Shown one piece after another: positions 7,301 to 23,925 of a stretch of 64,000 bases of DNA. The stretch lies in the NCBI GenBank assembly GCA_902500055.1, contig GCA_902500055.1_4131.1; one strand, 5' to 3'. Origin of the DNA: Escherichia coli. Lineage in GTDB: Bacteria > Pseudomonadota > Gammaproteobacteria > Enterobacterales > Enterobacteriaceae. The first letter of the stretch is position 1. Each line of letters begins with the position of its first letter. A program made the position numbers and the translations under genes. The notes under the pieces are model-generated. The model did not search any database. It was given only the letters and a program-made list of their open reading frames with translations, and was not told the DNA's origin.

Positions 7301-7306
7301 TCTTTT

Positions 7307-8789: not shown

Positions 8790-8810
8790 TGTTGTTAGTA
8801 CTGCAAGTTA

Positions 8811-9988: not shown

Positions 9989-10002
9989 TTTAATGTTTCC
10001 TT

Positions 10003-10462: not shown

Positions 10463-10632
10463 GCTTTCACCTCGCTATCTGCTTTGCCTTTACGCCAGGC
10501 CGTTGCTAATTGTTCGCGTTGCCATAAGTCGAGTGATACGTAAAGTTTTGCATTATCACCCTTCGGATATTCGCCAGTAGTACCAATCCGATAAAACAGA
10601 TCTTTCAGTACTGTTAATTCTACCTGGACCAT
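10459..10632 (-). CDS. hypothetical small protein
   Basis: ORF track; start trimmed to Met35 (MVQVELTV) with AGAGGA RBS. Confidence 0.5.
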   Translation of the reverse strand: MVQVELTVLKDLFYRIGTTGEYPKGDNAKLYVSLDLWQREQLATAWRKGKADSEVKA

Positions 10633-10718
10633 TATACTTTCCTCTTTGTTAGGAGGGGAACTATTCCCCTTCCGATATAAAACATTATACACTTTATTCA
10701 GTACAGTGCAAGTACTTT

Positions 10719-10931
10719 TTAATCTTTCAGCCAATGATCCTGAATGAATTTTTCACCGAAACCTTGCTGCATTGATTGTAACAGACGTTCGCGATGAGCG
10801 GCGGCGAATTGCTCAGTACTATGCGTTACACCTGGTTGATATCTGGATTCACCATTGGGGGCGATGTATTGTACATCCCACGGTTTTTCGTTAGTATCAG
10901 ACCATTTACGAACGATTAGTTGACCTTGCAT
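10719..10931 (-). CDS. hypothetical protein
   Basis: ORF track 70 aa. Confidence 0.5.
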   Translation of the reverse strand: MQGQLIVRKWSDTNEKPWDVQYIAPNGESRYQPGVTHSTEQFAAAHRERLLQSMQQGFGEKFIQDHWLKD

Positions 10932-11017
10932 TTTTCTTTCCTCTTAGTGGGGAGAATCATTTTCTCCCCTTCATGTAACTTATTATACAGTACTATAATC
11001 TATTGTCCAGTACTTTT

Positions 11018-11206
11018 TTACAGTTTATGAATTAATTCTTTATCTAAGCGATAGCGTACATTATTAATGGTAACAGCATTATTTTTAATGCTACGCTGTA
11101 CGGGTCCACCAGCAATAACAAACGTTGCTTTATTGCCCCGAACAATGATAGCACTTCCAGGATTACCGAAATCATCTTGTACTAAAATACTTGATAAGTT
11201 TTCCAT
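11018..11206 (-). CDS. hypothetical protein
   Basis: ORF track 62 aa. Confidence 0.5.
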   Translation of the reverse strand: MENLSSILVQDDFGNPGSAIIVRGNKATFVIAGGPVQRSIKNNAVTINNVRYRLDKELIHKL

Positions 11207-11284
11207 TTTTATTTCCTCTTAGTAGGGGAAGATGTTTCCCCTTGATGCAAGTACTATAACAGTACTGAAAACTAAATGCAAGTA

Positions 11285-11641
11285 CTATGATAAAATCATG
11301 ATAGGATATTCACTATCTATCAATACCTCGAATCCGAAACCTTCGTACCATTCTTTAAGATTAAAGGCGTTATCTTCTCCCGTATCGCATTCTAAGATGA
11401 TACAATCTGAATCATCGGCGGCATCGATAAAGGCATTCATTAATTCGTTACCTTCACCATTGCCCCGACTATCAGGATCAACATAAAGAGAATCAATAAA
11501 CGCTACACGGTCATAATCAAGATCCGGTGCAATGATTCCACGTTTAACAAACCAGTACTGCAATTGTGCTACTTTGCCCTGTACCTGATAACCAGTGATC
11601 TCTCCATTGTCAGTAGTACGCGTGATATGTTGTATTCCCAT
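11285..11641 (-). CDS. GNAT-like N-acetyltransferase (putative)
   Basis: Motif YVDPDSRGNGEGNELMNAF (R-G-x-G-x-G acetyl-CoA loop) and C-terminal WYEGFGFE. Confidence 0.45.
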   Translation of the reverse strand: MGIQHITRTTDNGEITGYQVQGKVAQLQYWFVKRGIIAPDLDYDRVAFIDSLYVDPDSRGNGEGNELMNAFIDAADDSDCIILECDTGEDNAFNLKEWYEGFGFEVLIDSEYPIMILS

Positions 11642-11705
11642 GATTACTATCCTCAGTTAAGATATAAAACATTATACACTATCTTTCAGTACTGTCAATT
11701 ACTTT

Positions 11706-11963
11706 TTATCTCATAGATCTATGCCAACAATTACGCGGTTGACGTTTAAAAATACTATCATGATCCTCCTGGCAAGTTATGCAGTACTTACACCCCTTAA
11801 CGACCTGGCGGCGATTCTCAGGGATTTTATCGCCGCAGTCGAGGCAATGTATCAGTGATTCTATTTGTGCGTTAATTTGCGTTCTAGCGTGGTTAACAGC
11901 AGCCTGAATCACTGCGTTAATCTCGTCTTGTTCGGCCCCATCTTTCGCGAATCCTACAGCCAT
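11706..11963 (-). CDS. TraR/DksA-family C4 zinc-finger protein (putative)
   Basis: CLDCGDKIPENRR...CKYCITC four-cysteine motif. Confidence 0.55.
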   Translation of the reverse strand: MAVGFAKDGAEQDEINAVIQAAVNHARTQINAQIESLIHCLDCGDKIPENRRQVVKGCKYCITCQEDHDSIFKRQPRNCWHRSMR

Positions 11964-12293
11964 TATTTTAACCTCATTATAAAAATACTATAGTACTGTA
12001 ATGCGACAATAATATTACTTGTTCTTACTTTTTCCAATCCACATGATACCACATATTCATTACCATATGTGCGGAACGATACACCATGAAAATTTTTATA
12101 CACTTGCACTACTAATCATAACCTTTCGTCTAACCAACTGCATAGAATTATACTACTTTACGCAAATTGATCAAGTATTGATCAGATCATTTTTGATCAA
12201 TATTATACAGTTACATTTGTGCACCCTATGGGTTAGTGACGTTCTCGTCTTGATGTAAGTATTATGCCAGTACTGGATGATATTGTCAATAGA

Positions 12294-12491
12294 TTATTTT
12301 AATTTTTTTCTGTCATTGATTAATGCTTTCAGTACTATACTAATGATTTGCAATGATTCATCAATGACTATAAAATTATTTTCTTTCATTAGATGATAGT
12401 TACCATTGATTGTATATTCTAAGGAGTACTGTTTACGTTTAATTTTTGATAATGTTTCTATTTGTTTTTGTACTGATTTCATGCTAATCAT
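12294..12491 (-). CDS. hypothetical protein
   Basis: ORF track 65 aa. Confidence 0.45.
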   Translation of the reverse strand: MISMKSVQKQIETLSKIKRKQYSLEYTINGNYHLMKENNFIVIDESLQIISIVLKALINDRKKLK

Positions 12492-12596
12492 TGGTAAACG
12501 TCCTGTAACGCATTCTAACGAGATAAACGGTTGAGTACTGGCATTGTATAGGGTAATGAATTAAAGCCCACCAGCGTTAACCAGTGGGCTATAATC

Positions 12597-12740
12597 TTAC
12601 ATCTTGCGGATAATCTTAACAGTATCTTTCACCGATTTACCGTTTTGCTGACATTGCTCGATCATCGCGTATTGTTCTGCGGTCAGATCCTCGCCAGTTT
12701 TTGCCAGTACTGCGTCGATGAATGAATCCAGTGCGATCAT
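12597..12740 (-). CDS. hypothetical small protein (47 aa)
   Basis: Manual translation MIALDSFIDAVLAK...; RBS-like AGAGAGAGAAACAAA upstream; hairpin downstream. Confidence 0.4.
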   Translation of the reverse strand: MIALDSFIDAVLAKTGEDLTAEQYAMIEQCQQNGKSVKDTVKIIRKM

Positions 12741-12832
12741 TTTGTTTCTCTCTCTTAGGTTAAGTTAACTACTGTTTATAAAACTTATTATACAGTACTA
12801 TCAAACGTTGTCAATAGTACTGGTAATATATT

Positions 12833-13045
12833 TTAATTGATGATGGTTAATGTAAAGTTATAATCCCCTGCCTGGTATAGTACTTTATCGCCGAACGTGC
12901 CGACACGTTTCATATTGCAATAGATACCCATAACACTTTTTACATCTTTGATATTCCGAACGCCCGTAATATCCTTGTTTAAATGATCGTGATCAGAAAA
13001 TAAAACTTGTTTTGCATTTTTCAGTACAGTGCAGATATTAGCCAT
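12833..13045 (-). CDS. hypothetical protein
   Basis: ORF track 70 aa. Confidence 0.5.
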   Translation of the reverse strand: MANICTVLKNAKQVLFSDHDHLNKDITGVRNIKDVKSVMGIYCNMKRVGTFGDKVLYQAGDYNFTLTIIN

Positions 13046-13141
13046 TTTGTTTTCTCTCTCTGTTAGTGGGGAGAAGTTTTTCTCCCCTTGATGTAAACTA
13101 TTATACAGTACTATAATCTATTGTCAAACTATTTTTTTATA

Positions 13142-13483
13142 TTATTCGAAATCTTCTGGACCGGACTGATAATCATCTTCACCGTATGCACTTTCTAACT
13201 TCTCGCCAGTGTGATCATCAGTTAGTGAATCATCCTCATAATTCACGTCTACGCCTACAATGTAAAACTGGCTATCGTCTGGATCATTGAAATTAATTTT
13301 CTGAATGTTTACAATAACTGTATTGATGCCCAGGACACAGCCATCAGCCGTTACAAAGTACTGATATTTTTCACAACCGCCTGAATTGAAACCGTAATTA
13401 ATTTCGGCCCGACCATCATTTAAACGCAGTGCCTGGGCGATGATTTCATTTTCAAAGTTAGATTGAGCAATTGAGATAGTCAT
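13142..13483 (-). CDS. hypothetical acidic protein
   Basis: ORF track 113 aa. Confidence 0.55.
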   Translation of the reverse strand: MTISIAQSNFENEIIAQALRLNDGRAEINYGFNSGGCEKYQYFVTADGCVLGINTVIVNIQKINFNDPDDSQFYIVGVDVNYEDDSLTDDHTGEKLESAYGEDDYQSGPEDFE

Positions 13484-13697
13484 GATTTGTTTCCTTATTA
13501 CCAGGGGAAACCGTTTCCCCTTTCGATGTAAAACATTATACGCTTATTGAGATAGTTTGCAAGTACTTTTTAAAAATAGTTTTCAGTACTCAATACTTAT
13601 ATAATAGATACACTTATGCACCCGGTGGGCTAGTGAGCTATCTCTCAATGAATATATAATAGCAAAATGGCTGACCGAAGTCAACCACTTTTTTCAT

Positions 13698-13832
13698 TTA
13701 TTTTTTAGCTTTCAGTACTGCCGCCTTTCGCGTCATGCCTTGCTTAATGTACTCCTTTACTTTCGCTTTACGTGCTTTCGCTTTATCTGCTTTCGTTTTA
13801 GGAGTACTGTAAATTAAACCGTTAGGATTCAT
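13698..13832 (-). CDS. hypothetical small basic protein (44 aa)
   Basis: Manual translation MNPNGLIYSTPKTKADKAKARKAK...; terminator hairpin downstream; weak RBS. Confidence 0.3.
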   Translation of the reverse strand: MNPNGLIYSTPKTKADKAKARKAKVKEYIKQGMTRKAAVLKAKK

Positions 13833-13918
13833 TTAAATCACCATAAAGAATAGATAGGTTACTAACAATGCCGCGATCAATGCACCGATCACCGCTGAAC
13901 TGTAATAAGCTAATGATT

Positions 13919-14071
13919 TCATTTTTTAGCCTGAAAATAATGTTTAATTTGAGCGGCGGTCAGTGCACAATTACGCAGGAAGTTTTCTGTATAACTTTTG
14001 CGAGTACTGAAAGAGAATTGACCTTTGCCGTTACCGATAGTAACATCAAACCGAGCGTTGTATTGTTTCAT
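13919..14071 (-). CDS. hypothetical small protein
   Basis: ORF track; start trimmed to Met11. Confidence 0.45.
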   Translation of the reverse strand: MKQYNARFDVTIGNGKGQFSFSTRKSYTENFLRNCALTAAQIKHYFQAKK

Positions 14072-14152
14072 TTTGTTTCTCCTGTTATTGGGGAGAATCA
14101 TTTCTCCCCTTCATGTAAACTATTATACAGTACTAAAAACTAATTGCAAGTA

Positions 14153-14299
14153 CTATTTTTTAGATTTACGCAAACTTTCTACCATCTCAGGAGTAAGGCC
14201 CGGCGGGTAGGAAACTACTTCATCAACGAAACGTAAAGGGAATACCCCAGCGAAAGGTGAACGTGCTTTCTTAGTATTACTCTTTTTTGATGCTTTCAT
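14153..14299 (-). CDS. hypothetical small basic protein (48 aa)
   Basis: Manual translation MKASKKSNTKKARSPF...; AAGGAA RBS; PeSL upstream. Confidence 0.4.
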   Translation of the reverse strand: MKASKKSNTKKARSPFAGVFPLRFVDEVVSYPPGLTPEMVESLRKSKK

Positions 14300-14368
14300 T
14301 TCATATTCCTTAATTAGTGGGGAGAATCATTTCTCCCCTTCATGTAAAACATTATACGCGTTTAAAAA

Positions 14369-14578
14369 CTAATTGCAAGTACTATTTGAAAGTAAATGCT
14401 CATACGCTGCATTAACTACGTTTTCAATAACCGACTGTACAGAAAGATCCCCCACGTCCTGGCTATAGTAGAAATCGCTTACAGTGGTGTCATCGTATGC
14501 AAATACTTTACCAGGTACGGCATCAATCACATACATATTAACCTTTAAGATGTCGATCTTATCCTGTACAGTAAGCAT
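14369..14578 (-). CDS. hypothetical protein
   Basis: ORF track 69 aa. Confidence 0.5.
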   Translation of the reverse strand: MLTVQDKIDILKVNMYVIDAVPGKVFAYDDTTVSDFYYSQDVGDLSVQSVIENVVNAAYEHLLSNSTCN

Positions 14579-14583
14579 ATTAA

Positions 14584-14856
14584 TTAACCTTTTAAGTACT
14601 GGCTTAAGTAGTCTTGTTGATCTTCGGTGATTGCAGCCATCTTCCCTAGTACTGGATTGATGATATAATCCCCTGTAACGTCCTGTAACGCATTCTCAGG
14701 CGGTTTAACGGCTGGGGTAGCCATAGCCATTGCCTGGACTTGTTCGACGCTGTAACGCTCATATAGGCGGCATTCTTCCGGTGTTAACATAGCATCAGTA
14801 CGCTTCATCGGTTTAATGATGCTTTCGATCTCATTCAGTACTTGATTAACGTTCAT
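14584..14856 (-). CDS. hypothetical protein
   Basis: ORF track 90 aa. Confidence 0.55.
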   Translation of the reverse strand: MNVNQVLNEIESIIKPMKRTDAMLTPEECRLYERYSVEQVQAMAMATPAVKPPENALQDVTGDYIINPVLGKMAAITEDQQDYLSQYLKG

Positions 14857-14907
14857 GGTATAATCCCCAATATAAGCGGCCTGAATCGACCGCTAACGAT
14901 GTTTTGA

Positions 14908-15177
14908 TTAATAGGTGTATGGTTGACGCTCAAACAATGATTGCACGTTGTACGCCCCGCTTATGGGCTTCGCTGGTAAATCAATTTTATATTGTTCACG
15001 CTTAAAGATAATAAAACGGCAATTGTTTTTAACATCAAAATTGATTGAACGTTCCAGGAGTTTACCATCGTGCACAAATACAAGATAACCGCTTGGTACT
15101 TGTTTTGTAGTACTGGTTGCAACCATAGACCGCCGAACATGTGTACCTGCATCGATTAAAGTACTGATATTTTTCAT
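14908..15177 (-). CDS. hypothetical protein
   Basis: ORF track 89 aa. Confidence 0.5.
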   Translation of the reverse strand: MKNISTLIDAGTHVRRSMVATSTTKQVPSGYLVFVHDGKLLERSINFDVKNNCRFIIFKREQYKIDLPAKPISGAYNVQSLFERQPYTY

Positions 15178-15257
15178 TATACGATCCTCTTAAGTTAATT
15201 TAATTTCTTTCCCCTATGCAGACACTATATCAAAGTATCTGCATAAAGTAAAGCTAA

Positions 15258-15602
15258 TTAAAGATCTTTTTTGCGTTTAACATCAGTTACCGAACTGTAA
15301 ACAGTGATATTATTGTCACGGCAAAAACGGGAAAGATAAGAACCGCGTAAAAACTCTTTATCTTCCATATTAATAACCTTGCTAAATTCTTCCATTGCTA
15401 CAGTGTCAAAGTGATCCCCGTATCCATATTGGAACGGCACGTTTACTACTTCAATAAAATTACCATCAATTTCTACGTCTACACTTAAAGAGAAATAAGT
15501 GTTACCATATGAAGCCTGGAACCAACGCCGAGCGGCAATATGTACAACTTCAACAGAAGACAGGTTGATATTTTGTTTTGCGATAGTGTTGATATTAGCC
15601 AT
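15258..15602 (-). CDS. hypothetical protein (paralog of 9302-9625)
   Basis: ORF track 114 aa; shared C-terminal VKRKKD and YGYG core. Confidence 0.6.
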   Translation of the reverse strand: MANINTIAKQNINLSSVEVVHIAARRWFQASYGNTYFSLSVDVEIDGNFIEVVNVPFQYGYGDHFDTVAMEEFSKVINMEDKEFLRGSYLSRFCRDNNITVYSSVTDVKRKKDL

Positions 15603-15690
15603 TTTAATTTCCTCTTAGTTGTCTTGATAAAATCTATTATGCCAGTACTATCAAACTATGTCAATAGTACTGTGATAATATTTTTACTTA
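15603..15690 (-). repeat. about 90 bp promoter-region direct repeat (second copy 15897-15990)
   Basis: TTGTTTCCTCTTAGTTGTCTTGATAAAATCTATTATGCCAGTACTATCAAACTATGTCAATAGTACTGTGATAATATTTTTACTTAC occurs twice. Confidence 0.7.
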
Positions 15691-15896
15691 CTTTCTTTCG
15701 CTGCTTTGTGCGTTGCCACTGCCATAACCACATCAGCACGAACAAAGTTTTTTACCGTGTCAGTGTAGTAATTGATTGCATCGTCAACATCTGTAAAAAT
15801 CCGATACATGCCGCACCACGATACTTTATAACCTTCTTTCACTTCTTCCAGCTTAACCAGTGATTTGTTTACTTTGATTTTTGTGATGATAGCCAT
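15684..15896 (-). CDS. hypothetical protein
   Basis: ORF track 70 aa. Confidence 0.55.
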   Translation of the reverse strand: MAIITKIKVNKSLVKLEEVKEGYKVSWCGMYRIFTDVDDAINYYTDTVKNFVRADVVMAVATHKAAKESK

Positions 15897-15977
15897 TATT
15901 GTTTCCTCTTAGTTGTCTTGATAAAATCTATTATGCCAGTACTATCAAACTATGTCAATAGTACTGTGATAATATTT

Positions 15978-16121
15978 TTACTTACTTTTTGCTTTCTTTG
16001 CTGCTTCCACCTGGTCGGCCCACTCTTTACCCCATACCTGAGCGTTATAGTGATACTGACAAAGAGCAACGCCCCGCTTTAAACCAGTAATAGATTTCTG
16101 ACCACATTGACAAGTTTTCAT
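15978..16121 (-). CDS. hypothetical small Cys-containing protein (47 aa)
   Basis: Manual translation MKTCQCGQKSITGLKRGVALCQYHY...; AAGGAAA RBS. Confidence 0.4.
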   Translation of the reverse strand: MKTCQCGQKSITGLKRGVALCQYHYNAQVWGKEWADQVEAAKKAKSK

Positions 16122-16207
16122 TTTAGTTTCCTTGTAGTGGGGAGAACCATTTTCTCCCCTTGATGTAATGTATTATACTTTATTCGATTTACTTTGCAAG
16201 TACTTTT

Positions 16208-16435
16208 TTAATTTAATTCATCAAGGCAAAGGATACGCTCAACGCCCAAATCAGTTAAACTAATCGACGGCACTTGATAGGTTTCAATGTATGCTACACT
16301 TGCCCACTGACCGAACTCATTAACGGCCCAGGTATTCATTGCATTTTGCAATTCCGCACCTTCCTTGTTGGTAATGACTGCAACTACTTGTTCGTTGCCA
16401 GTAGTACCAGATACGCGAGTAATGATAATAGCCAT
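16208..16435 (-). CDS. hypothetical protein
   Basis: ORF track; start trimmed to Met20. Confidence 0.5.
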   Translation of the reverse strand: MAIIITRVSGTTGNEQVVAVITNKEGAELQNAMNTWAVNEFGQWASVAYIETYQVPSISLTDLGVERILCLDELN

Positions 16436-16669
16436 TGTTTTGATTCCTTTGATTTGGAAGGAGAACCGTTTCCCCCTCTCGATGTAAAACATTATACGCT
16501 AATCTCTTAATCGTGCAAGTACTTTTTATTACTTTTTGCAAAATACTTTAAACGCACTCAATCGCATTCTAACGACTTTAACGCCACCAGCTAGGGCAAT
16601 GCATCAGATAAACAGTTTAATACGTTAGAATCGTTTCTAGGCGGTGCTGGTGGCCTGGTAAACGATAAA

Positions 16670-16700
16670 CACAAAAAAGCCCACTGTATAAGTGGGCTAA
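16670..16700 (-). terminator. intrinsic terminator
   Basis: Minus strand hairpin AGCCCACTTATACAGTGGGCT followed by TTTTTTGTG. Confidence 0.55.
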
Positions 16701-16719
16701 TGATTCAGTACTTTAATTG

Positions 16720-17202
16720 TTATGCTTCAACTTTGCGATGAGCTTCGATCCATTCCTCGCGAGTCATACCACTGGAGTTAATCGCATCCAGTACTACCGC
16801 AATGCAGTTACCACGCACCGGAATCAGATATTCTTCCCCGTTATCAAGTACTACCGCTACACGTTCTTGAATCCATTTTTTAGCTTTTACTTCTGGCTTA
16901 TCTTCACCGTACTTTTTCGCCAGGGCTTTTTGTGCCATCTCTGTAACTACTTCCAGATCCAATCCAACTACTGCCGCCTGAATACTTTCAATTGTTGCTT
17001 GTAGTTCTGCTTCACGGGCCGCCTTTGCCGCTTCAATTTCTGCCGCTTTATTTGCTTGTAGTTCTTTCGCAGTACTGTAAGCGATGTTAAAATTATTGCG
17101 TACCGCTTTCATGGTATCGTTATCCAGTTCAGCCAGGATCTCAGCCGCGACGTTAGTTTCATTTGCTACCAGTGCTTTGATGAATGATTTTACATTAGCC
17201 AT
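16720..17202 (-). CDS. hypothetical Ala-rich coiled-coil protein
   Basis: ORF track; start trimmed to Met6 with GAGGA RBS. Confidence 0.6.
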   Translation of the reverse strand: MANVKSFIKALVANETNVAAEILAELDNDTMKAVRNNFNIAYSTAKELQANKAAEIEAAKAAREAELQATIESIQAAVVGLDLEVVTEMAQKALAKKYGEDKPEVKAKKWIQERVAVVLDNGEEYLIPVRGNCIAVVLDAINSSGMTREEWIEAHRKVEA

Positions 17203-17401
17203 TTTATAAATCCTCAATTAAAGTTTAGTTTACGTTTATTAGTGTATCAAAGTTTTCTCGACGTGTCCAGTTTTTCGTTCGACTTACTGGCGGTCTACTT
17301 AGTGCTCCCCGTCTTGATGTAATACATTCTACGCTTTTCTGCGGTAATGTCAACTACTTTCTTAAAACTATTTTCAAAGTATCTCAGTACTACGATACTA
17401 C

Positions 17402-17431
17402 AAAAACAAAAAAAGCCCACCAGGTGGGCTA
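17402..17431 (-). terminator. intrinsic terminator
   Basis: Minus strand hairpin AGCCCACCTGGTGGGCT followed by TTTTTTTGTTTTTG. Confidence 0.6.
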
Positions 17432-17436
17432 TGTAC

Positions 17437-17667
17437 TTAATCAGTGAGTAAAATATTAAACACTTTACCATTTAACGTTATTGGTGCACTGCTACCAGGC
17501 TCAAGATCCGTTAATATACCTGCAATCGCTTTATCATTGGCGACCTTTCCAGTGTCCAACAGTACTACAGTACTGATAAGATTAACGCTCGTTTCAATAT
17601 CATAATGCACGGCGTTAAGTAGTTGTGTAGTACTGCTTTCGTTAAGTAAAACAATTCGCTTAGTCAT
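17437..17667 (-). CDS. hypothetical protein
   Basis: ORF track 76 aa. Confidence 0.5.
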   Translation of the reverse strand: MTKRIVLLNESSTTQLLNAVHYDIETSVNLISTVVLLDTGKVANDKAIAGILTDLEPGSSAPITLNGKVFNILLTD

Positions 17668-17688
17668 GATGTTACCCCGTAGTATCTA

Positions 17689-17988
17689 TCAACGGCAATT
17701 AATAACGCCGGTATGCGTTACTTTCTCAGTATCCATTACAGTGACCGAACCGCGTTTAGTACTGGCATCATAATAAATTGTCGTGCTACCGTTTTCGTCT
17801 TCTTCATGGAACGGGCCGTTTTTAAATGCTTCCGGCTGAATCTCCAGATCCTTTAATACAATCTCGCCAGTACTTTCATCGGTCATTGCAACAGTGCACT
17901 GAATGAATTTTTCACTACTTACATCTAATGACGCATTAACAGCGAAAGAGGAAACAGATAAAGCCAGGGCGATGATTGTAATTTTCAT
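17689..17988 (-). CDS. secreted protein (signal peptide)
   Basis: N-terminus MKITIIALALSVSSFAVNAS. Confidence 0.55.
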   Translation of the reverse strand: MKITIIALALSVSSFAVNASLDVSSEKFIQCTVAMTDESTGEIVLKDLEIQPEAFKNGPFHEEDENGSTTIYYDASTKRGSVTVMDTEKVTHTGVINCR

Positions 17989-18072
17989 TTGATTATCCTT
18001 AGTTACCAGGGGGAACCGCTCCCCCTTGCGATGTAAAATATTATACAGTACTAAAAACTATTATCAAGTACT

Positions 18073-18309
18073 TTATGATTTTTTATAAAACATTTCAGCA
18101 GTGATATTTTTACCCGTTGGCTGTACTTTATCCAGAATTTTTTGATGCCCTGGTCGTCCAAAGGAATATGATCCGTAAACAGTAAACCAGTAGTTGCCAT
18201 CAGTGTTTACATGTACAGCACAATAGGGTACGCCCCGCGATTCATCACTAGTAAAGTGTGCTACCGTTCCCGTTACATTCGAAGTCGTTGATTTGATTTG
18301 TTCAAGCAT
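18073..18309 (-). CDS. hypothetical protein
   Basis: ORF track 78 aa. Confidence 0.5.
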   Translation of the reverse strand: MLEQIKSTTSNVTGTVAHFTSDESRGVPYCAVHVNTDGNYWFTVYGSYSFGRPGHQKILDKVQPTGKNITAEMFYKKS

Positions 18310-18553
18310 TTTATTATTCCTTAGTTACCAGGGGGAACCGCTCCCCCTATGCAAAACATTATACGCGTTTAAAAACTAATTGCAAGTATTTTAATAAAAA
18401 GTATTTGAAAAATAGTTGTTGACAAGTGCATCCAGTACTGGCATAATTACTACATCAAGACGAAACAGTCACTAACCCACCGGGTGCCGAGATCCGTCTA
18501 TTAAATGATTCAGTACTGAAAAAGTAACGGGGAGTTATTATCTCCCCGCGTTG

Positions 18554-18775
18554 TTATTTTGTAAGGTATAAACAGAAGTCGCCTTTATTTGCTACGCCGC
18601 CAGTGTAACGCGATGAATAGTTAGAAACGTCCTGGACTTCTGCTATTACCAGGGTATCATCATTCAATTCGTCGCAGAAGCAAACGGCTGGATCTTGTAC
18701 GCCGATTTTGTCGGCATGTTCCCGCATAGATTTCACCAGTGCTTCCAGTTGGGAAAGAGTAGTGATATTAGCCAT
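18554..18775 (-). CDS. hypothetical protein
   Basis: ORF track; start trimmed to Met11. Confidence 0.5.
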   Translation of the reverse strand: MANITTLSQLEALVKSMREHADKIGVQDPAVCFCDELNDDTLVIAEVQDVSNYSSRYTGGVANKGDFCLYLTK

Positions 18776-18863
18776 TTTATTTTCCTCATTACCAGGGAGA
18801 ACCATTTCTCCCTTTGATGTAAACCATTATACAGTACTGAAAACTAATTGCAAGTACTTTTTT

Positions 18864-19124
18864 TCAGTATTGTTTATCGTCGTCTTCCTCGATGAATTGA
18901 CCGACGAAATGATCTACTTTCGCTTTGAGGCTTTTATAATCTTCTTCTACTTCCGTTAAACGTTCCTGGTAGTATTCCAGTGCCTCAAGATACGCCGCCT
19001 CAGCAGTTTTTGCACGCATAGCTAAATTCATTCCACGCGTTTCATCATAAAGCCAATAACCATCGGTGCACTGGCTAATAGATAATGACTTGCTTAGTGC
19101 TGTATAGCTAATTACTTTACTCAT
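18864..19124 (-). CDS. hypothetical protein
   Basis: ORF track 86 aa. Confidence 0.5.
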   Translation of the reverse strand: MSKVISYTALSKSLSISQCTDGYWLYDETRGMNLAMRAKTAEAAYLEALEYYQERLTEVEEDYKSLKAKVDHFVGQFIEEDDDKQY

Positions 19125-19181
19125 TAGATAACCCTCAGTAAAGGCGGGAACTATTACCCGCCATTATCTCAGTACTGAATA

Positions 19182-19421
19182 TTACATTCCAACCATTGCA
19201 GCACGGATCGCCGTAGTGCTATACTTGAATCCGTCCGGCGTTGTAGTAGTACCGTTGGCTTTTAATCTGCGGTACATACATTCCGCAGCAATATCTTTCG
19301 TTTTACTTTGTGCGATGCAATTTTGAGCAATCCGGTATAATGATTCATCGTTATTGATCCAAAGGCTTACATTCCAATGAGTTTTGTTTTTGTGCCCGTT
19401 GTAAGTTTTAGTACTAGCCAT
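19182..19421 (-). CDS. hypothetical protein (paralog of 21221-21460)
   Basis: Shared HKNKTHWNVSLWINNDE and TPDGFKYSTTAIRAAMVGM. Confidence 0.6.
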   Translation of the reverse strand: MASTKTYNGHKNKTHWNVSLWINNDESLYRIAQNCIAQSKTKDIAAECMYRRLKANGTTTTPDGFKYSTTAIRAAMVGM

Positions 19422-19511
19422 TTTTAAATCCTCGTTTGAGCGGGGAACCACTCCCCGCCTTGATGTAAAGTATTATACGCTTTTAAACTTAGTTTACAAG
19501 TACTTTTTAAA

Positions 19512-20120
19512 TTAATATTCGATTGATTCCACTACGCCATCAATAACATTGAATTGATATTCGTTACCCTCAATCAGTGCAGTAATGTTTTCAGTAGTGA
19601 ATTGATCCTCATATGCATTCTCTAAATCACGGTACAACTTACGAGATAATTCACGGATCGCATCAGTCAGTAAGTTTTCCAGATCCTCAGCCAATGCCGC
19701 CTGTTTTACAGTTAAATCAGTGTAGCGAGTATCAACGCAACCGCCTACCGTGTTTTCGTGTGCGTAGCGTGATTGGAAACGTTCTACACTCATTTCTAAA
19801 TCATCCTCGTTCAACAGGTGACGGATTGAACGATATTTCGTTAACGCCTTAACCTTGCGTAAAAACTTCTCAGCGTCAACGTGGTTAGTACTGATTGATG
19901 CACCGTCACCTTGCGACCAAAAACCACTGTATTGCAATTCAGCTTCATCTATGCCGTATTCTGGTAGTACTGTTTCTTTATAGTACTCGATAACGCCCTC
20001 AGCAAAGAAATTATCCTCACATGAACGCTCACGATCCCGAACCAGTTCAATAGCCGCCGTTTTTTGTTCTGCGTTCAGTTCAGAAAAAGCCATAACAAAA
20101 GTAGTAGTGATAGTTTTCAT
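19512..20120 (-). CDS. hypothetical acidic protein
   Basis: ORF track 202 aa; GAGGG RBS; preceded by duplicated leader. Confidence 0.6.
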   Translation of the reverse strand: MKTITTTFVMAFSELNAEQKTAAIELVRDRERSCEDNFFAEGVIEYYKETVLPEYGIDEAELQYSGFWSQGDGASISTNHVDAEKFLRKVKALTKYRSIRHLLNEDDLEMSVERFQSRYAHENTVGGCVDTRYTDLTVKQAALAEDLENLLTDAIRELSRKLYRDLENAYEDQFTTENITALIEGNEYQFNVIDGVVESIEY

Positions 20121-20137
20121 TTTGTAACCCTCATTCA

Positions 20138-20320
20138 GTAGTTGATGTAAGTATTATACGCTTTTACTTTCTATTGTCAAACTATTTTATCAGGGGAGTT
20201 TTTCGTGTGCCTTACTCCTGGGCTACTTAACGGGAAGTTACTTATTTCGTTCCCCGTCCTGATGTAAAACATTATACGCCTTTAAACATAGTTTACAAGT
20301 ACTTTTTAAAAATAGTTTTC
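20138..20320 (-). repeat. duplicated leader cassette with tandem promoters (copy 2 of 2)
   Basis: Near-identical to 10003-10190. Confidence 0.6.
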
Positions 20321-20547
20321 AGTACTGAATATTAAAAAAAAGTATTGACAGCATTATCAAGTACTGGCATAATATACCCCATGACAACAGCTAACCCACC
20401 GGGTGCACAATTGTAACTATACTAAACTAATTTTTCTATAGATACACTCCCGCACCCTATGGGCTACGGCTTATCTGCCAATGAATACATTATGCCAGTA
20501 CTGACAAAATAAGTCAATACCGGCAATTGTAAAGATTTGTAAACTGC

Positions 20548-20784
20548 TTATACTGCAATCGCGTCCAGGCTGTAATAATAATAAGTGCCGTATTGGTGTA
20601 CTTTATTACCTTTTATTTCAGTACTGAATGAATCCGAACGGTTTGCATATGATGTTAATTTAAAGTACTTTGATTTGCTGATACGTTGCCATACACCACA
20701 GATCCGCTGTAAGTAAGTAGTTTTATTCGTGGTAGTATCTTTTACGGTTTTAACTTCAGTCATATACATATTAGTCATTTTCAT
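20548..20784 (-). CDS. hypothetical protein
   Basis: ORF track 78 aa. Confidence 0.45.
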   Translation of the reverse strand: MKMTNMYMTEVKTVKDTTTNKTTYLQRICGVWQRISKSKYFKLTSYANRSDSFSTEIKGNKVHQYGTYYYYSLDAIAV

Positions 20785-20865
20785 TACTCCAGGTTATAGG
20801 CGGGAAGAGTTCCCGCTCTCGATGTAAAACATTATACGCTTTTATCAGTACGGTGCAAGTACTTT

Positions 20866-21132
20866 TTATTCAAGTACTGCAATCTTTTTAGTACGGTACA
20901 CGGTCACGCGGTTGCCCTTTCGGTCGAGCTTTATTTCTACCACTCGACGCGATACACTATCGGGACTTTTTAAGGCCGCTAACCAGTACTGTAATGATCT
21001 GGCCGTACTACGCTTTACAATGGCCCAACGTTCACCACTTGCCGATCCCGCTCCCATATCTTTAAACGTTGCCCCGTCCTGGCGTGCGGCGATCCGAGCT
21101 TGTTCACGCGTCGCAAAATACTTAATATTCAT
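20866..21132 (-). CDS. hypothetical protein (paralog of 8811-9206)
   Basis: Start trimmed to Met13; shared motifs with 8811-9206. Confidence 0.6.
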   Translation of the reverse strand: MNIKYFATREQARIAARQDGATFKDMGAGSASGERWAIVKRSTARSLQYWLAALKSPDSVSRRVVEIKLDRKGNRVTVYRTKKIAVLE

Positions 21133-21220
21133 GTTGTTGCCCTTATCGTTGGTGTATGAATAAAACACTATTATAAAGTACTATCCCCGTGCAATAGTAC
21201 TTTAAATAAATTCTATTCTA

Positions 21221-21460
21221 TTACATTCCAACCATAGCCGCACGGATCGCAGTAGTGCTATATTTGAATCCGTCCGGTGTTTTATCTTGTCCAGTCTGTT
21301 CTAAAAATAACATCATATGACGGGCCGCATCATTGCGATTAGTATTGGCGGCAATAAAGTCCAGGGCCAACCGATACAATCCCTCATCGTTATTAATCCA
21401 CAGGCTTACATTCCAATGAGTTTTGTTTTTGTGACCTAAGAACATTTTTGATTTAGCCAT
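21221..21460 (-). CDS. hypothetical protein (paralog of 19182-19421)
   Basis: Start trimmed to Met14; shared motifs. Confidence 0.6.
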   Translation of the reverse strand: MAKSKMFLGHKNKTHWNVSLWINNDEGLYRLALDFIAANTNRNDAARHMMLFLEQTGQDKTPDGFKYSTTAIRAAMVGM

Positions 21461-21552
21461 TTTTTTAATCCTCTTATATAGTGGGGAACTATTCCCCACC
21501 TGATGTAAAACATTATACGCTTTTATTCAGTACTGTCAAACTAATTTTTAAC

Positions 21553-21915
21553 TTATTCGTAAATTTTGCCACTGTCAGCCCATACCAGGAAACGAGGCAT
21601 ATTATCCCATGCATCTTGTTTTAAATTTAAACCGTGTAATACTTCTGTACTTTCCATTCCTGGTACTGGTTTACTATACACCGCGAAATTTTCGCCCATA
21701 TACTGATAAACCATCGTCAAATCACTGGCGATCATCTTATGGATCATCGCATCAAGCATCACGGTGGCGGCGTATTGTTCACGCTTAAGCGGCAGCATTT
21801 TAATCAGTTCGCGGTATGCGTCAATGTGAGTTTTAACCGTTGCCGCCGGAAGATCTTTCATATCGTCGCGGAAGTTAACCAGGTTAGCAATGATTTTAGT
21901 GATTTGAGTCGCCAT
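21553..21915 (-). CDS. hypothetical protein
   Basis: ORF track 120 aa. Confidence 0.55.
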   Translation of the reverse strand: MATQITKIIANLVNFRDDMKDLPAATVKTHIDAYRELIKMLPLKREQYAATVMLDAMIHKMIASDLTMVYQYMGENFAVYSKPVPGMESTEVLHGLNLKQDAWDNMPRFLVWADSGKIYE

Positions 21916-22027
21916 CGTTTTAATCTCTTAAAAGTGAGTAGGGAAGTGTTCCCGCTCTCGATGTAAAACATTATACGCTTTTTTCAGTACTGTGCAAGTA
22001 CTTTCTACAAATACTTTTAAAATAGTT

Positions 22028-22127
22028 TTCTTTCTATATAGGGGAACTATTATTCAGTACTGAATCAATCCAGGGGAACTATCTTTCTATATAGGAGTAC
22101 TATTATTCAGTACTGAATCAATCCACT
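22028..22127. repeat. tandem direct repeat, 2 x about 45 bp
   Basis: TCTTTCTATATAGG(G/A)G..ACTATTATTCAGTACTGAATCAATCCA occurs twice in tandem. Confidence 0.7.
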
Positions 22128-22277
22128 AAATCATCCCTATACCCCGTAAAACGGCCTCAGACGCATTCTAACGCATTAATACACCTAAGCTATACATTTG
22201 CACCATTCTAATCATTCCAGGGCTTTACGGGCCGTTTAAACGCGTTAAATTATTTTCAATTATTTTGTTTTTAGGTA

Positions 22278-22305
22278 TTGACTTGATCCTGAAAAAGCGT
22301 ATAAT
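22278..22305 (+). promoter_or_regulatory. near-consensus sigma70 promoter in non-coding hub
   Basis: TTGACT-16 nt-TATAAT. Confidence 0.5.
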
Positions 22306-22420
22306 TACTACATAGACGCGAGAAAGCGGAAACCCCAGGGGGTGCGGAATTACGCCCAAAATTCAAGATATAAAAAAAGGATACACTCCCGCACCCTAGC
22401 AGGCAAACGCACTTTCTCAG
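22306..22420 (+). ncRNA. candidate small RNA unit 1 (speculative)
   Basis: Downstream of promoter 22278-22305; no ORF; shares CGAGAAAG, GGGTGC and TTACGCCCAAAATTCA blocks with unit 2. Confidence 0.25.
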
Positions 22421-22493
22421 TACTGAAATATAGTACCATAGTCCGGCCCAGGATAGCAAGCAAATTAATTAAAATTTTTTTGCTTCCAGGGTA

Positions 22494-22521
22494 TTGCTTT
22501 ATTTTTTCAGTACTGTATAAT
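22494..22521 (+). promoter_or_regulatory. near-consensus sigma70 promoter with extended -10
   Basis: TTGCTT-16 nt-TG-TATAAT. Confidence 0.5.
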
Positions 22522-22600
22522 AGTTCCATCAAGTCGAGAAAGACTCAAGCCCACCGGGTGCATAGTTACGCCCAAAATTCAGTACTGAAAAAATTTTTAA
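22522..22600 (+). ncRNA. candidate small RNA unit 2 (speculative)
   Basis: Downstream of promoter 22494-22521; paralogous to unit 1; no ORF. Confidence 0.25.
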
Positions 22601-22618
22601 AAATATCCGTCCAGGCCG

Positions 22619-22647
22619 TTGACATTGCCCCCAGTTTATAAGATAAT
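22619..22647 (+). promoter_or_regulatory. near-consensus sigma70 promoter
   Basis: TTGACA-17 nt-GATAAT. Confidence 0.45.
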
Positions 22648-22740
22648 GATTCCAGATTCAGAAAAATCTAACTCCAGATACTGCGGGGAAACTATCCCCA
22701 CGCGGTAGGGGAACTATTGGAAAAAACAAAATAAAATTTT

Positions 22741-22875
22741 GATTTAGCCGTCTATACTTCCAGACGTGTAACCATCTAGCCGTTTAGCCGTCCAAACGTC
22801 TAGCCATCCAGCCATCCAGAAATCTAGCCGTTTAGCCGTCTAGATGGATAGCCATCTTTACTTCCAGACTTCTGG
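22741..22875. repeat. iteron-like short direct and inverted repeat cluster
   Basis: TAGCCGT/TAGCCAT heptamer about 8 times, CTAGCCGTTTAGCCGTC twice, palindrome CCATCTAG/CTAGATGG, ACTTCCAGAC twice. Confidence 0.65.
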
Positions 22876-23925
22876 AGGGCTAGACATATCTACGTCCAAA
22901 ATCCACCCAGGGTAACTACACCCAAAATCCGTCAGTACTATACCATAGATCTATCTTTTGAAAGGGAGTATTCAGTACTGCCATCATAGCCCTCACTATG
23001 TTACCCTAGGAGGATGAAGACCATCATGTAGTACTGAATACTGTTAGAGGGAATCCACCAGCTTGTGCTGGTGGCATAATGCATTAAATTAAAATCAGTA
23101 CTGACACCATTCTGTTAATATCAGTACTGTTTATATTACGAAAAAAGAGGTTATAAAAAGATGTACCACCCATAGGAGGAACTATCCTTTCAGTACTGTC
23201 TCACGACAGGAGGTAGAGTGAATGAATTGTTTGCGGCAACTCATCTCTCTATGTAGAACATTATACAGTACTGAATCATAATGTCAATAGCTTTCTTTCA
23301 TTATTCAGTACTGATATTCTTGAGAACTACCCGACTACAAACATCATTATATCCCACAAATCATAAACGTCCCAACGTAAATTTCAACTTTCGAAGATCC
23401 AACTTTTATTTCATAGGTACTCCAAAATTTTTAGGATCGAGATTTAGGATGGAGTACTAACCAACTTTTTGCTGGAGCCTCAAGGGGTAATGGAATTTTA
23501 CCCCGAAGGGTAAAAGGGTAATTGTAATTAAGGTGAAAGTAATAATTCAGTACTAATCATTGTGTGATTACTTTTGATTACATTTGATGTAATTTGCAAA
23601 ATGGAAAAGGAGCTTGGAAACTACAAAGTACGGCAGACTTCCTCTGCCTACTTAGTGGGATATCAGTACTGAATCATTCACACACATTTCCGTGCATTCT
23701 TGAGCAATCTTGTCTATACTAATCAGTACTGAATCATATATAATCATTCTGTGATTCTACGGTGCTCATATAAATGTTTATATATGATTACTTATGACTA
23801 CCTATGATTACGGGGTTTAGCCTGGGGAGAATCCTAGTGATCGCATTTGTCCAGGCTGAATTTTAACAATTCGCCTGTACATAAAGGTTGTTCACTAGGA
23901 GCTTCCCCTGTCTCTATGTGTTTAA

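Follow-up and report, generated by a model that had tools for sequence, protein, structure and literature searches.

The left terminal repeat of phage T5 carries, as Repeat Region 3 with its injection stop signal (iss), a large non-coding region rich in repeats and palindromes, which lies across the boundary between direct terminal repeat (DTR) and unique DNA and is conserved better than the neighbouring ORFs (10.1101/866236). By analogy, this appears to be the closest counterpart of the DNA studied here, positions 21916-23925 of a 64,000-nucleotide stretch (the window). In both phages, a long exact DTR bears the first-expressed genes and an untranslated region of 1.7-2.0 kb extends over the DTR/unique boundary, with an overrun of 270 bp in T5 and 273 bp here. 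Both regions are well conserved across relatives compared with adjacent ORFs and both contain the physical end of the mature genome; the leader fits the iss architecture in being untranslated, rich in repeats and palindromes, and placed across the boundary. A mirror-image analogy was dropped, because T5 genes 1-6022 are transcribed rightward (10.1101/866236). The two regions share no sequence similarity, however. The eight paired DnaA boxes of the T5 iss are absent from this leader, which, unlike T5, combines near-consensus sigma70 promoters on both strands with structured RNA modules, a double-Chi hairpin and the CAGTACTG palindrome. The phages themselves also differ, T5 being a T5-like siphovirus and this phage a RaK2-like myovirus, for which two-step injection is not known.

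The left end of T7, reportedly described by Dunn & Studier in 1983, holds a terminal repeat, an adjoining short-repeat array (SRL), a leftward promoter A0 and the strong early promoters A1-A3. Like T7, the leader has strong host-polymerase promoters clustered within about 1 kb of the end, at least one of them facing the end, and short-repeat arrays beside the terminal-repeat boundary; as in T7, duplication by a nick-and-displace model would fit the cut sites found at both boundaries of the repeat. The T7 repeat is only 160 bp long and gene-free, whereas the one here spans 20.6 kb with about 55 genes, and the leader lacks the phage RNA polymerase promoter and the concatemer-junction pause signal of T7. 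Within the same broad clade as our phage, the Pseudomonas jumbo phage PA5oct has a 39 kb DTR full of early genes and depends on host RNA polymerase, with TTGAC/TATAATA promoters; RNA-seq revealed two ORF-free DTR transcripts, 8 and 22 kb into the DTR, each contributing 1.2-5.1% of phage reads (PMC7318152). Both phages thus have a long early-gene DTR, but no sequence similarity has been reported or was found, and the PA5oct ncRNAs, for which no structure is described, do not lie at the end.

Judged by its nucleotide matches, the window is DNA of an Asteriusvirus (PBECO4/121Q-type, RaK2-like) jumbo coliphage. In a nucleotide search, 44 phage records matched 21916-23925, 34 of them over at least 80% of its length; those listed among the matches show 88-97% identity, and all matches are PBECO4/121Q-type (Asteriusvirus-like) jumbo phages. 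Published DTR lengths are about 20-21 kb (PMC13070987; PMC6563267), based on PhageTerm and restriction digests for fEgEco12 (PMC13070987) and on read coverage for G17 (PMC6563267), and evidence on the DTR terminus is also published for Sharanji. The records of fEgEco12, G17, Ec-M-J and other phages carry both DTR copies, with window 3056-23652 at either end, and the Ec-M-J record annotates the DTR as repeat_region. The ends of mature genomes in close relatives place the physical left end within the stretch, at 23652|23653, and the stretch consists of the first 1,737 bp of the DTR, counted from this end, and 273 bp of unique DNA. Termini of the relatives are fixed and not circularly permuted: eight GenBank records start or end at AGTAGGCAGAGGAAGTCTGCC with identical first 21 nt, although some of them were possibly re-oriented to match an earlier record and not independently determined, and the right end is common to two records (fEgEco12, G17). 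In this isolate, where the window runs continuously over the boundary, the terminus would lie at the same position by homology.

A preliminary description of this DNA had regarded the stretch as a gene-free 'hub' of non-coding transcription. The hub gives way to the boundary of a 20.6-kb DTR with a physical genome end inside, and we consider it quite probable that the stretch is a non-coding leader at the left physical end, straddling the boundary between the unique right arm and the DTR. The position of the end has already been published; for the anatomy of the leader we found no description in the literature, and literature on CAGTACTG or AGTACT in jumbo phages and on promoters of PBECO4, 121Q and phAPEC6 does not describe the region. 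The features of the leader and its surroundings are as follows.

3056..23652: DTR, 20,597 bp; nt 1 of fEgEco12 maps to window 23652, the right ends of fEgEco12 and G17 to window 3056
21553..21915, minus strand: first DTR gene (g01 homologue, hypothetical protein)
21941..21997, minus strand: putative g01 promoter TTGCAC-16-TATAAT with CAGTACTG over the -35, and a 5' leader hairpin; conserved in relatives
22029..22125: tandem 53-bp repeat with CAGTACTG and halves of the leader-hairpin motif; relatives differ in the number of copies
22278..22400, plus strand: unit 1, with outward promoter TTGACT-16-TATAAT (22278-22305, 11/12 match), CATAGAC, hairpin 1, ACCC-loop-GGGT, hairpin 3 and AAAATTC; terminal long-range stem GGGTGCGG/CCGCACCC
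22378..22397, minus strand: terminator-like hairpin with T7 run for inward transcripts; degenerate minus-strand unit core
22494..22590, plus strand: unit 2, promoter TTGCTT-16-TATAAT and structured 5' domain; Asteriusvirus/Alcyoneusvirus-specific duplicate
22619..22718, plus strand: outward promoter TTGACA-17-GATAAT (22619-22647, 11/12 match) and leader with GGGG...CCCC hairpin (leader fold z -3.1), reading into the AT tract and 8-mer array
22719..22744: AT-rich tract; its minus strand matches the IHF consensus exactly at 22732-22744 (AATCAAAATTTTA), and the window has just one other exact match
22745..22900: tandem 8-mer array (TCYAGCCR) with about 13-20 units; indels among relatives are multiples of 8
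23055..23074: hairpin CCACCAGC-TTGT-GCTGGTGG, formed by two inverted Chi sites
23096..23129: inverted pair of CAGTACTG, then ATTTTAATTT on the minus strand; terminator-like hit, invariant in relatives
23140..23254, minus strand: structured ncRNA candidate from the 23287 promoter, with a hairpin at the 5' end, a second one with GNRA loop (CUGUC-GUGA-GACAG) and a stem with U-run; fold z -2.3
23287-23260, minus strand: promoter TTGACA-16-TATAAT, inward toward the early genes; 12/12 match, conserved in relatives
23361..23480: near-invariant block without assigned feature; 77-100% invariant columns per 30-nt bin
23484..23545: hairpin GGGGTAA-TGGAATT-TTACCCC, then GGGTAAnn 8-bp repeats, read from the sequence; tandem-repeat finder row 23506-23521
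23565..23598, minus strand: GTAATCA repeats with 10-bp period, inside the end; one additional 10-bp unit in Ec-M-J
23632..23648: terminal inverted repeat (GGCAGA-CTTCC-TCTGCC) at a distance of 5-21 nt from the end; folding energy -14.8 kcal/mol with z -3.4
23641..23664, minus strand: left-end cut site GATATCCCACTA|AGTAGGCAGAGG, cut between 23653 and 23652
23783..23811, minus strand: outer GTAATCA-type 10-bp repeats in unique DNA, 131-159 bp outside the cut, in the same orientation as the inner set

Our comparison with relatives bears out the earlier view that no credible ORF lies here. The curated annotations of 121Q, A4, ph0011, PBECO4, CRJP21, Ec-M-J and BF17 leave the stretch empty, and each of the ORFs of 42-99 aa is interrupted by stops or frameshifts, or has lost its start, in 2-9 of 11 relatives. 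It is extremely improbable that decayed early genes or small translated ORFs account for the conservation. Automatic annotations in some relatives do place 7-12 'hypothetical proteins' in the stretch, and a 44-aa ORF at 22225-22359 on the minus strand is intact in 10 of 12 genomes, but besides the broken ORFs and the empty curated records, indels of 1, 7, 8 and 10 nt are tolerated, and conservation tracks promoter hexamers and hairpins, not codons. A 19-aa ORF with a good Shine-Dalgarno sequence (about 23224-23283) was rejected because insertions of 7-8 nt interrupt it in G17 and BF17; such insertions in these two phages also exclude coding within 23140..23254. An apparent '1.2-kb insertion' in PBECO4 and the Salmonella SD phages was rejected as a second, paralogous blast piece, the non-coding stretch there also measuring about 2.0 kb. 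Several blocks of the leader are near-invariant, with conservation at least equal to that of the adjacent g01 coding stretch, and RaK2-like phages of four genera retain colinear blocks. In Muenster, XbC2, Serratia BF and pEa_SNUABM_12, the left end has a gene-free leader of 1.3-1.8 kb with colinear blocks and with GAAGTC at nt 12-17.

The leader contains more near-consensus sigma70-type promoters than expected. At a loose threshold, promoter-like sites show no excess (18 versus 19.4 in shuffles). At a match of at least 11/12, the stretch has three sites versus 0.108 in 500 Markov simulations, none of which reached three, and the whole window has 37 versus about five simulated. Of the 37, the DTR holds 26, and the 24 kb past the boundary are free of them. 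The preliminary description had named three near-consensus plus-strand promoters, of which those at 22278 and 22619 hold; the one at 22494 is weaker (9/12 overall, -35 only 3/6), and its TG does not form a canonical TGnTATAAT extended -10, because it abuts the hexamer. This site is nevertheless conserved in 12/12 aligned relatives. The minus-strand promoter proposed near 23262-23290 was confirmed as the perfect match at 23287, with CAGTACTG adjoining its -10 hexamer, and the g01 promoter at 21941..21997 is paralogous to a perfect promoter at 21539. In 12 genomes, the hexamers at 22278, 22494 and 22619 are invariant, while the spacers carry 5-14 substitutions (about 14 in the 22619 spacer of 121Q) or 1-nt indels; with hexamers constrained and spacers free, the alignment indicates that these promoters are under selection. 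None of the three plus-strand promoters faces a gene; all point outward, toward the DNA end. Once the DNA has entered the cell, host sigma70 RNA polymerase would use the near-consensus promoters, with the inward 23287 promoter and the g01 promoter starting early-gene expression and the three outward promoters yielding non-coding transcripts toward the DNA end, which in concatemers would run across the junction. A transcriptome of this phage genus was not found in the literature, and we infer promoter use, RNA ends and RNA abundance in the leader from the sequence.

Units 1 and 2 had been described as a paralogous couple sharing CGAGAAAG, GGGTGC and TTACGCCCAAAATTCA. These strings are present in both units, which are true paralogues, but they are not a pair: the motif CCC-N(2-5)-GGGTG occurs at ten distinct loci (11 regex hits; fewer than one by chance, as estimated from base composition), each about 30-45 nt downstream of a -10 hexamer. 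By this motif, units 1 and 2 are members of a DTR-wide promoter-leader cassette family of at least ten copies, each of which would combine a strong promoter with a short structured 5' RNA domain. Unit 1 was found in four genera. The core pairs of helix 1 are formed in 34 of 42 cells with 4-5 double-sided changes per pair, in stems of just 3-5 bp, and helix 3 is paired in 67/70 cells (95.7%) on the transcribed strand versus 42/70 on the complement. The unit structure, which was derived from the same sequences and has alternative pairings, is 81.7% paired versus at most 50% in slid controls. The 5' hairpins of the units appear to covary and are strand-specific, which argues for RNA; single-sequence folds (z -1.8 for unit 1 and -1.4 for unit 2) are indistinguishable from shuffles. 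A terminator scan found no plus-strand intrinsic terminator anywhere in 21916-23925, and units 1 and 2 therefore resemble the 5' parts of longer transcripts that run off or read through. What remains of the 'small RNA' proposal is conserved, strand-specific RNA-type structure with short stems, but no plus-strand terminator that would delimit a product of 80-110 nt. Also suggested had been a search of Rfam; Rfam 15 gave no gathering-threshold match in the whole window and chance-level matches alone at E<=5.

RNA elements that lie close to a promoter and act on the transcribing polymerase are known as boxB in the lambda nut site and as put in phage HK022. The unit hairpins resemble these in their purine-rich loops (GAGAAA, AGAUAA, GGACACAA) 10-45 nt past early promoters and in being repeated at many of these. 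This is a resemblance only: the unit stems have 3-4 bp and not 5, no N-like protein was identified, and of the lambda-type boxA (CGCTCTTA) the form CGCTCTT[AT] is absent from the window, relaxed matches all lying far from the units. On the minus strand, the G17 record annotates the counterpart of 22378..22397 as an ARNOLD terminator (-16.5). The putative RNA from 23287 has stem-plus-U-run terminator candidates, and JNE01 shows compensatory changes in hairpins 1 and 2 of the 23140..23254 candidate.

The motif CTA|AG of the left cut is repeated, inverted, at the right DTR boundary (window 3055/3056), which reads CT|TAGC in the window and in Klebsiella phage Muenster. In the alignment of relatives, the junction and the DNA inside the cut are conserved, whereas the DNA immediately outside is hypervariable with indels. 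At nt 12-17, the terminal inverted repeat includes GAAGTC (minus strand, 23641-23636), and GAAGTC or AAGTC stands at an equal distance from the end in XbC2, Serratia BF, pEa_SNUABM_12 and Muenster; phage A4 has lost the terminal hairpin. GAAGTC near both cuts is asymmetrically placed, so it was rejected as a motif of both and is treated as a left-end motif only. Part of the block at 23361..23480 is conserved in XbC2 and GAP32 (blastn). A packaging nuclease might cut replicating concatemers at CTA|AG beside the terminal hairpin, and the mirror-image site at window 3055/3056 would generate the other genome end; the 10-bp and 8-bp repeat arrays flanking the cut probably bind packaging or end-binding proteins.

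Genome-wide, the CAGTACTG palindrome has its densest cluster in the leader. Chi sites are also frequent, with 15 in the window versus 0.71 expected, ten of them in the DTR and seven of these intergenic. In the hairpin at 23055..23074, the plus-strand Chi is 586 bp from the left end and oriented for RecBCD entering there, and at 0.6 kb from the end, a double-Chi hairpin would weaken an attack by RecBCD. Among relatives the loop of this hairpin is flipped (TTGT/ACAA), and phage A4 keeps a compensated hairpin at the locus with both Chi sites absent. Mimasvirus and Eneladusvirus also have the 8-mer array, about as far from the end, and the promoter-leader-array module at 22619 is conserved in four genera. 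Given a promoter reading into an AT tract and repeat array with this degree of conservation, the 'transcription-activated element' put forward in the preliminary description was a fair guess.

This module could serve a transcription-activated replication origin, in which transcription from 22619 would run through an AT-rich tract for unwinding, with its IHF site, and into the 8-mer array as iteron-like repeats, to prime or open an origin near the end. Conservation of the module in four genera, the exact IHF consensus, variation of the array by whole 8-bp units and the position of the tandem direct repeats (22745-22900) next to the AT-rich tract (22719-22744) would fit, as would the window's cumulative GC-skew minimum at about 23,000-23,500. 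This minimum is ambiguous, because skew elsewhere follows gene strand, and the unusual composition of the adjacent array of small ORFs can account for the switch. DnaA boxes, moreover, are not enriched (three one-mismatch matches, where the density in the window predicts 3.6), iterons do not typically have an 8-bp period, and there is no adjacent initiator gene, the flanking genes being small hypotheticals, all of which makes an origin unlikely. Better placed, and possible while not the reading we favour, are stand-alone small-RNA genes: units 1 and 2, and perhaps the 23287 RNA, would be discrete, abundant, trans-acting sRNAs with host or phage targets. Strong conserved promoters, missing ORFs and apparently covarying, strand-specific 5' hairpins in four genera agree with this, and so do the putative 23287 transcript with its three hairpins, compensatory changes and U-run, a plus-strand unit at 18419 that ends at a bidirectional terminator, and the two DTR ncRNAs of PA5oct, a jumbo phage related to ours, at 1.2-5.1% of its phage reads (PMC7318152). 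However, the stretch has no plus-strand intrinsic terminator, Rfam is without a match, and most members of the unit family are leader-like, lying upstream of gene-proximal promoters.

A T5-type injection-stop or first-step-transfer region, in which the DTR would enter first from the window 3056 side and pause at the repeat-rich leader during expression of its early genes, is very doubtful: paired DnaA boxes are missing, the lineage is unrelated to T5, two-step transfer is not reported for these phages in the literature searched, and the gene orientation is equally consistent with left-end-first entry, as in T7. The likeness to T5 Repeat Region 3 / iss (10.1101/866236) speaks for such a function, as do the orientation of 8 of the 10 DTR Chi sites toward a nuclease entering from the window-3056 end and the concentration of strong host promoters in the DTR (26 of 37 in the window, none in the 24 kb beyond the boundary). 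Elements of several readings could be combined if the non-coding leader that we favour served RaK2-like jumbo phages as a single integrated device for 'end-management'. Transcripts running outward from the unit and 22619 promoters across the 8-mer array would then activate a cis function at the DNA end, which may be packaging or the processing of concatemer junctions, an origin with an R-loop or a pause in DNA transfer as in T5, and the unit RNAs together with CAGTACTG would exert clade-specific control of early transcription. We rate this combination as quite unlikely; if true, it would include a control system of unit RNA and CAGTACTG without a described counterpart.

Work toward therapy is yielding many isolates of RaK2/PBECO4-group jumbo phages, whose cis-acting DNA is unannotated. 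Our map of the non-coding leader at the left physical end corrects the annotation of a stretch that automatic pipelines fill with spurious 'hypothetical proteins', shows the start point of the genome and tells engineers which 2 kb to leave undisturbed. It furthermore yields candidates for packaging signals, for RecBCD evasion through Chi in the DTR and for early ncRNAs. The parallel with the still-unexplained iss region of T5 suggests, by analogy, a common solution in unrelated phages with long DTRs.

The gene-free stretch at 21916-23925 (2,010 bp) matched 44 phage records, 34 of which cover at least 80% of it, with 88-97% identity among the matches listed. All of these records are PBECO4/121Q/phAPEC6/G17-type jumbo coliphages that belong to the genus Asteriusvirus or are closely related to it, and their genomes measure ~350 kb. 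The preliminary description had seen no credible ORF here, and comparison with relatives bears this out: the 99-, 62-, 60-, 59- and 42-aa ORFs are broken or lack their start codon in 4-9 relatives, 2 relatives have a broken 44-aa ORF, and no ORF of the stretch survives. Small translated ORFs are very unlikely to explain its conservation, and curated annotations of the relatives leave it empty. In some relatives (e.g. E9.1, BAU.Micro_ELP-22, SD Salmonella phages, WPEC3), automatic pipelines have called 7-12 'hypothetical proteins' here, which, having failed the conservation test, are probably spurious. We interpret the stretch as a non-coding control leader at the physical left end of the phage genome.

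According to PhageTerm and restriction digests, the linear genome of phage fEgEco12 (374,733 bp) carries direct terminal repeats (DTRs) of 20,993 bp (PMC13070987). Its nucleotide 1 maps to window 23652, minus strand. An identical AGTAGGCAGAGGAAGTCTGCC opens, or ends in opposite orientation, eight deposited genomes (fEgEco12, E9.1, BAU.Micro_ELP-22, CRJP21, Ec-M-J, BF17, G17 and WPEC3), and the Ec-M-J record carries an annotated repeat_region. This comparison of genome ends shows the left end to lie at 23652|23653, hereafter the cut. As window 3056 corresponds to the right end in fEgEco12 as well as in G17, the DTR spans window 3056-23652. The stretch comprises the first 1,737 bp of the DTR, which form the leader ahead of the first DTR gene, g01 (21553-21915, minus strand), and 273 bp of the unique right arm. 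Conservation shifts abruptly at the cut: outside (23665-23760) the alignment is indel-rich, while it is conserved inward from GATATCCCACTA|AGTAGGCA. The right boundary, ...CT|TAGC, is common to the window and Klebsiella phage Muenster, so both boundaries read CTA|AG, inverted, from outside into the repeat. In the T7 model, nicks on opposite strands are followed by displacement synthesis, and by analogy the inverted boundaries would fit such a process. The right physical end at window 3056 falls in a short intergenic gap (...GGGTAACCT|TAGCGACTTC), and the TTGACT-16-TATTAT promoter of the first unique gene lies ~40 bp past it.

Elements of the leader from the end inward, i.e. towards the early genes (genome coordinate g = 23653 minus window coordinate)
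g 5-21: inverted repeat with a 6-bp stem (folding z -3.4)
nt 12-17 from the end: GAAGTC, inside the terminal inverted repeat
both sides of the cut: GTAATCA triplets with a 10-bp period, same orientation
inward of the GTAATCA repeats: GGGGTAA hairpin, then GGGTAAnn 8-bp repeats
inward of the GGGTAAnn repeats: near-invariant 120-bp block (conservation table)
23287, minus strand: perfect inward promoter, after the near-invariant block
inward of the 23287(-) transcript region: CAGTACTG pair forming a hairpin
23055-23074: hairpin CCACCAGC-TTGT-GCTGGTGG, two inverted Chi sites
inward of the Chi hairpin: ~13-20 tandem 8-mers (TCYAGCCR), indels among relatives in multiples of 8
inward of the 8-mers: AT tract with one of the window's two exact IHF consensus matches
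inward of the AT tract, plus strand: three outward promoters (towards the DNA end) and their units
inward of the units: 53-bp repeat of variable copy number
innermost: g01 promoter and leader hairpin

Genomes differ in the 4-nt loop of the Chi hairpin, which reads either TTGT or ACAA, a loop inversion between otherwise identical Chi arms. Folding predicts for the 23287(-) transcript a 5' hairpin, a GNRA-loop hairpin and a stem with U-run, and JNE01 carries compensatory changes in it.

The promoter scan upheld two of the three near-consensus plus-strand promoters described earlier, 22278 (TTGACT-16-TATAAT) and 22619 (TTGACA-17-GATAAT), each scoring 11/12, whereas 22494 (TTGCTT-16-TATAAT) has a poor -35 and lacks a canonical extended -10. 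The minus-strand promoter suspected near 23262-23290 is a perfect 12/12 site at 23287 (TTGACA-16-TATAAT). The plus-strand promoters lie at g 1034-1375, aimed at g 1, the DNA end, and the perfect one at g 366, aimed inward. At a loose threshold the stretch holds no excess of promoter-like sites (18 vs 19.4 in shuffles), but its 3 sites of at least 11/12 compare with 0.108 simulated, a number reached in 0 of 500 simulations. The whole window has 37 such sites (~5 simulated), 26 of them, 14 perfect, within the 20.6-kb DTR (3056-23652), against none in the 24 kb right of the boundary (23653-47900). Predicted host-polymerase promoters are essentially confined to the DTR and a second block past 47.9 kb. 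Across 12 aligned genomes (the window and 11 relatives), the hexamers of the three plus-strand promoters are invariant and the spacers vary freely, with ~14 substitutions in the 22619 spacer of 121Q and a 1-nt insertion in the 22494 spacer of three genomes; this alignment shows the hexamers to be under selection.

Units 1 and 2, the paralogous stretches downstream of 22278 and 22494, do share the strings reported for them, and on sequence comparison they are members of a family, not just a pair. CCC-N(2-5)-GGGTG has 11 regex matches at 10 distinct loci in the window (<1 expected by chance from base composition), each ~30-45 nt downstream of a -10 hexamer. The aligned copies share an A-rich upstream element, a strong promoter, a CAT-type start region and a short variable segment followed by an invariant core. 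Six copies share the strand of the genes (minus), and most of these precede a second, gene-proximal promoter by ~100 bp; the four plus-strand copies (18419, 20345, 22278, 22494) are all within 5.3 kb of the left end, with no ORF downstream of any of them. Four genera carry a recognisable unit 1 (Asteriusvirus, Alcyoneusvirus, Mimasvirus and Eneladusvirus). At 20345-20530, two unit-type promoters face each other ~170 bp apart, and their predicted short transcripts are fully overlapping and complementary; in distant genera unit 1 has the same convergent partner, with core GCACCCTGTGGGC, which is degenerate in the window. Many minus-strand gene-proximal early promoters (e.g. 6345, 11260, 18832, 21528, 49660) are followed by ACATCAA and then a 5' leader hairpin of type GGGGAGAA-tag-TTCTCCCC, halves of which are the GGGGAACTAT strings in the stretch.

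Two helices were tested in a 14-sequence alignment of orthologues and paralogues. In helix 1, a 3-4 bp stem with purine-rich loop (CGC/GCG, CGA/TCG, GTC/GAC, CGG/CCG, GGAG/CTCC, GACG/CGTC), the three core pairs form in 34 of 42 cells, with 4-5 double-sided changes per pair. Helix 3 is paired in 67 of 70 cells through G-C to G-U and U-G to U-A changes, against 42 of 70 on the complementary strand. The whole structure, itself derived from these 14 sequences, is 81.7% paired, with slid controls at 50% or less, and its covariation score was above that of every shuffle. Helix covariation and strand specificity point to an RNA made in the promoter's direction; the stems are short, however, alternative pairings exist and single-sequence fold z-scores of both units are ordinary. 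Rfam yielded no family at gathering thresholds in the whole window and only chance-level matches in a permissive scan of the stretch. Because a terminator scan found no plus-strand terminator in the stretch, the supposed 80-110 nt units are better described as structured 5' domains of longer predicted transcripts.

The palindrome CAGTACTG occurs 72 times in the window (1.03 expected), and its core AGTACT 296 times (~22 expected from base composition). Since 41 of the 72 copies lie inside ORFs, the motif is genome-wide. The leader has 6.9 copies per kb, the coding DTR 1.4/kb and the DNA past 30 kb 0.65/kb, and there are none in 1-3055. The palindrome's placement in early promoters is fixed to one of two registers: it either abuts the -10 hexamer or overlaps the -35. 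Muenster and XbC2 also carry it in their first 100 nt. A clade-specific DNA-binding protein may use it as an operator. Chi (GCTGGTGG) is present 15 times (0.71 expected), at 4418-23074 in the DTR and at 30751-50158. Ten sites are in the DTR, 7 of them intergenic and 8 on the minus strand, oriented for RecBCD entering at the right genome end, from which the first Chi is met 1.36 kb in; two pairs are inverted (16584/16646 and 23055/23067). Tightly packed, apparently paralogous minus-strand ORFs of ~60 aa fill 23926-28300. Their GC skew (+0.2, plus strand) runs counter to that of every other minus-strand gene, which explains the window's cumulative-skew minimum at ~23,000-23,500.

The cut-site region and flanking repeat arrays could serve terminase or end-binding proteins, and host sigma70 polymerase would fire from the leader promoters right after DNA entry. 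RpoD-like early promoters in the related phage CBB (PMC5259590) and the dependence of PA5oct on host polymerase (PMC7318152) fit this step. Inward promoters would start early-gene expression. Non-coding RNA from the outward promoters would extend as far as the DNA end or, in concatemers, through the junction, its transcription converging with that from the inward promoter. The plus-strand Chi at g 586 may attenuate RecBCD that comes in from the left end; the majority of the remaining DTR Chi sites face the right end.

Other explanations must be weighed against such a control leader. Discrete trans-acting sRNAs are a tentative alternative, and a transcription-activated origin is rather unlikely. 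The T7 left end is a partial parallel. Closest in architecture is T5 Repeat Region 3/iss, a 1,662-bp untranslated, repeat- and palindrome-rich region that overruns the terminal-repeat boundary by 270 bp and is better conserved than neighbouring ORFs, its mechanism still being unexplained (10.1101/866236). The paired DnaA boxes that define T5 iss are absent from the leader, which is therefore an analogue and not a member, and a T5-type injection-stop region is improbable. Each of these three alternatives would be compatible with a control leader; none excludes it. Decayed genes or micro-ORFs, given the broken reading frames, are highly improbable. The DTR ncRNAs of PA5oct (PMC7318152) offer a further partial parallel. 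Terminal repeat and ends are already published; in the literature searched we found neither the leader anatomy nor the unit RNA family described, nor the outward promoters, nor the enrichment of Chi and CAGTACTG.

A distant-mode search recovered leader pieces in Klebsiella, Xanthomonas, Serratia, Erwinia, Yersinia and Cronobacter jumbo phages. The first 1.3-1.8 kb are gene-free in Muenster (DTR annotated from PhageTerm), XbC2, Serratia BF and pEa_SNUABM_12, whose records start at the repeat's left end, and their blastn blocks (g 176-244, 670-976, 1109-1354, 1616-1755) are colinear with the window at similar end distances. The 22619-type promoter, leader, AT tract and 8-mer array recur together in Asteriusvirus, Mimasvirus and Eneladusvirus. 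The ANI of fEgEco12 to compared phages outside Asteriusvirus is only 23-29% (PMC13070987), and conservation of non-coding DNA over such a distance argues for an essential cis-acting role of the leader in these jumbo phages.
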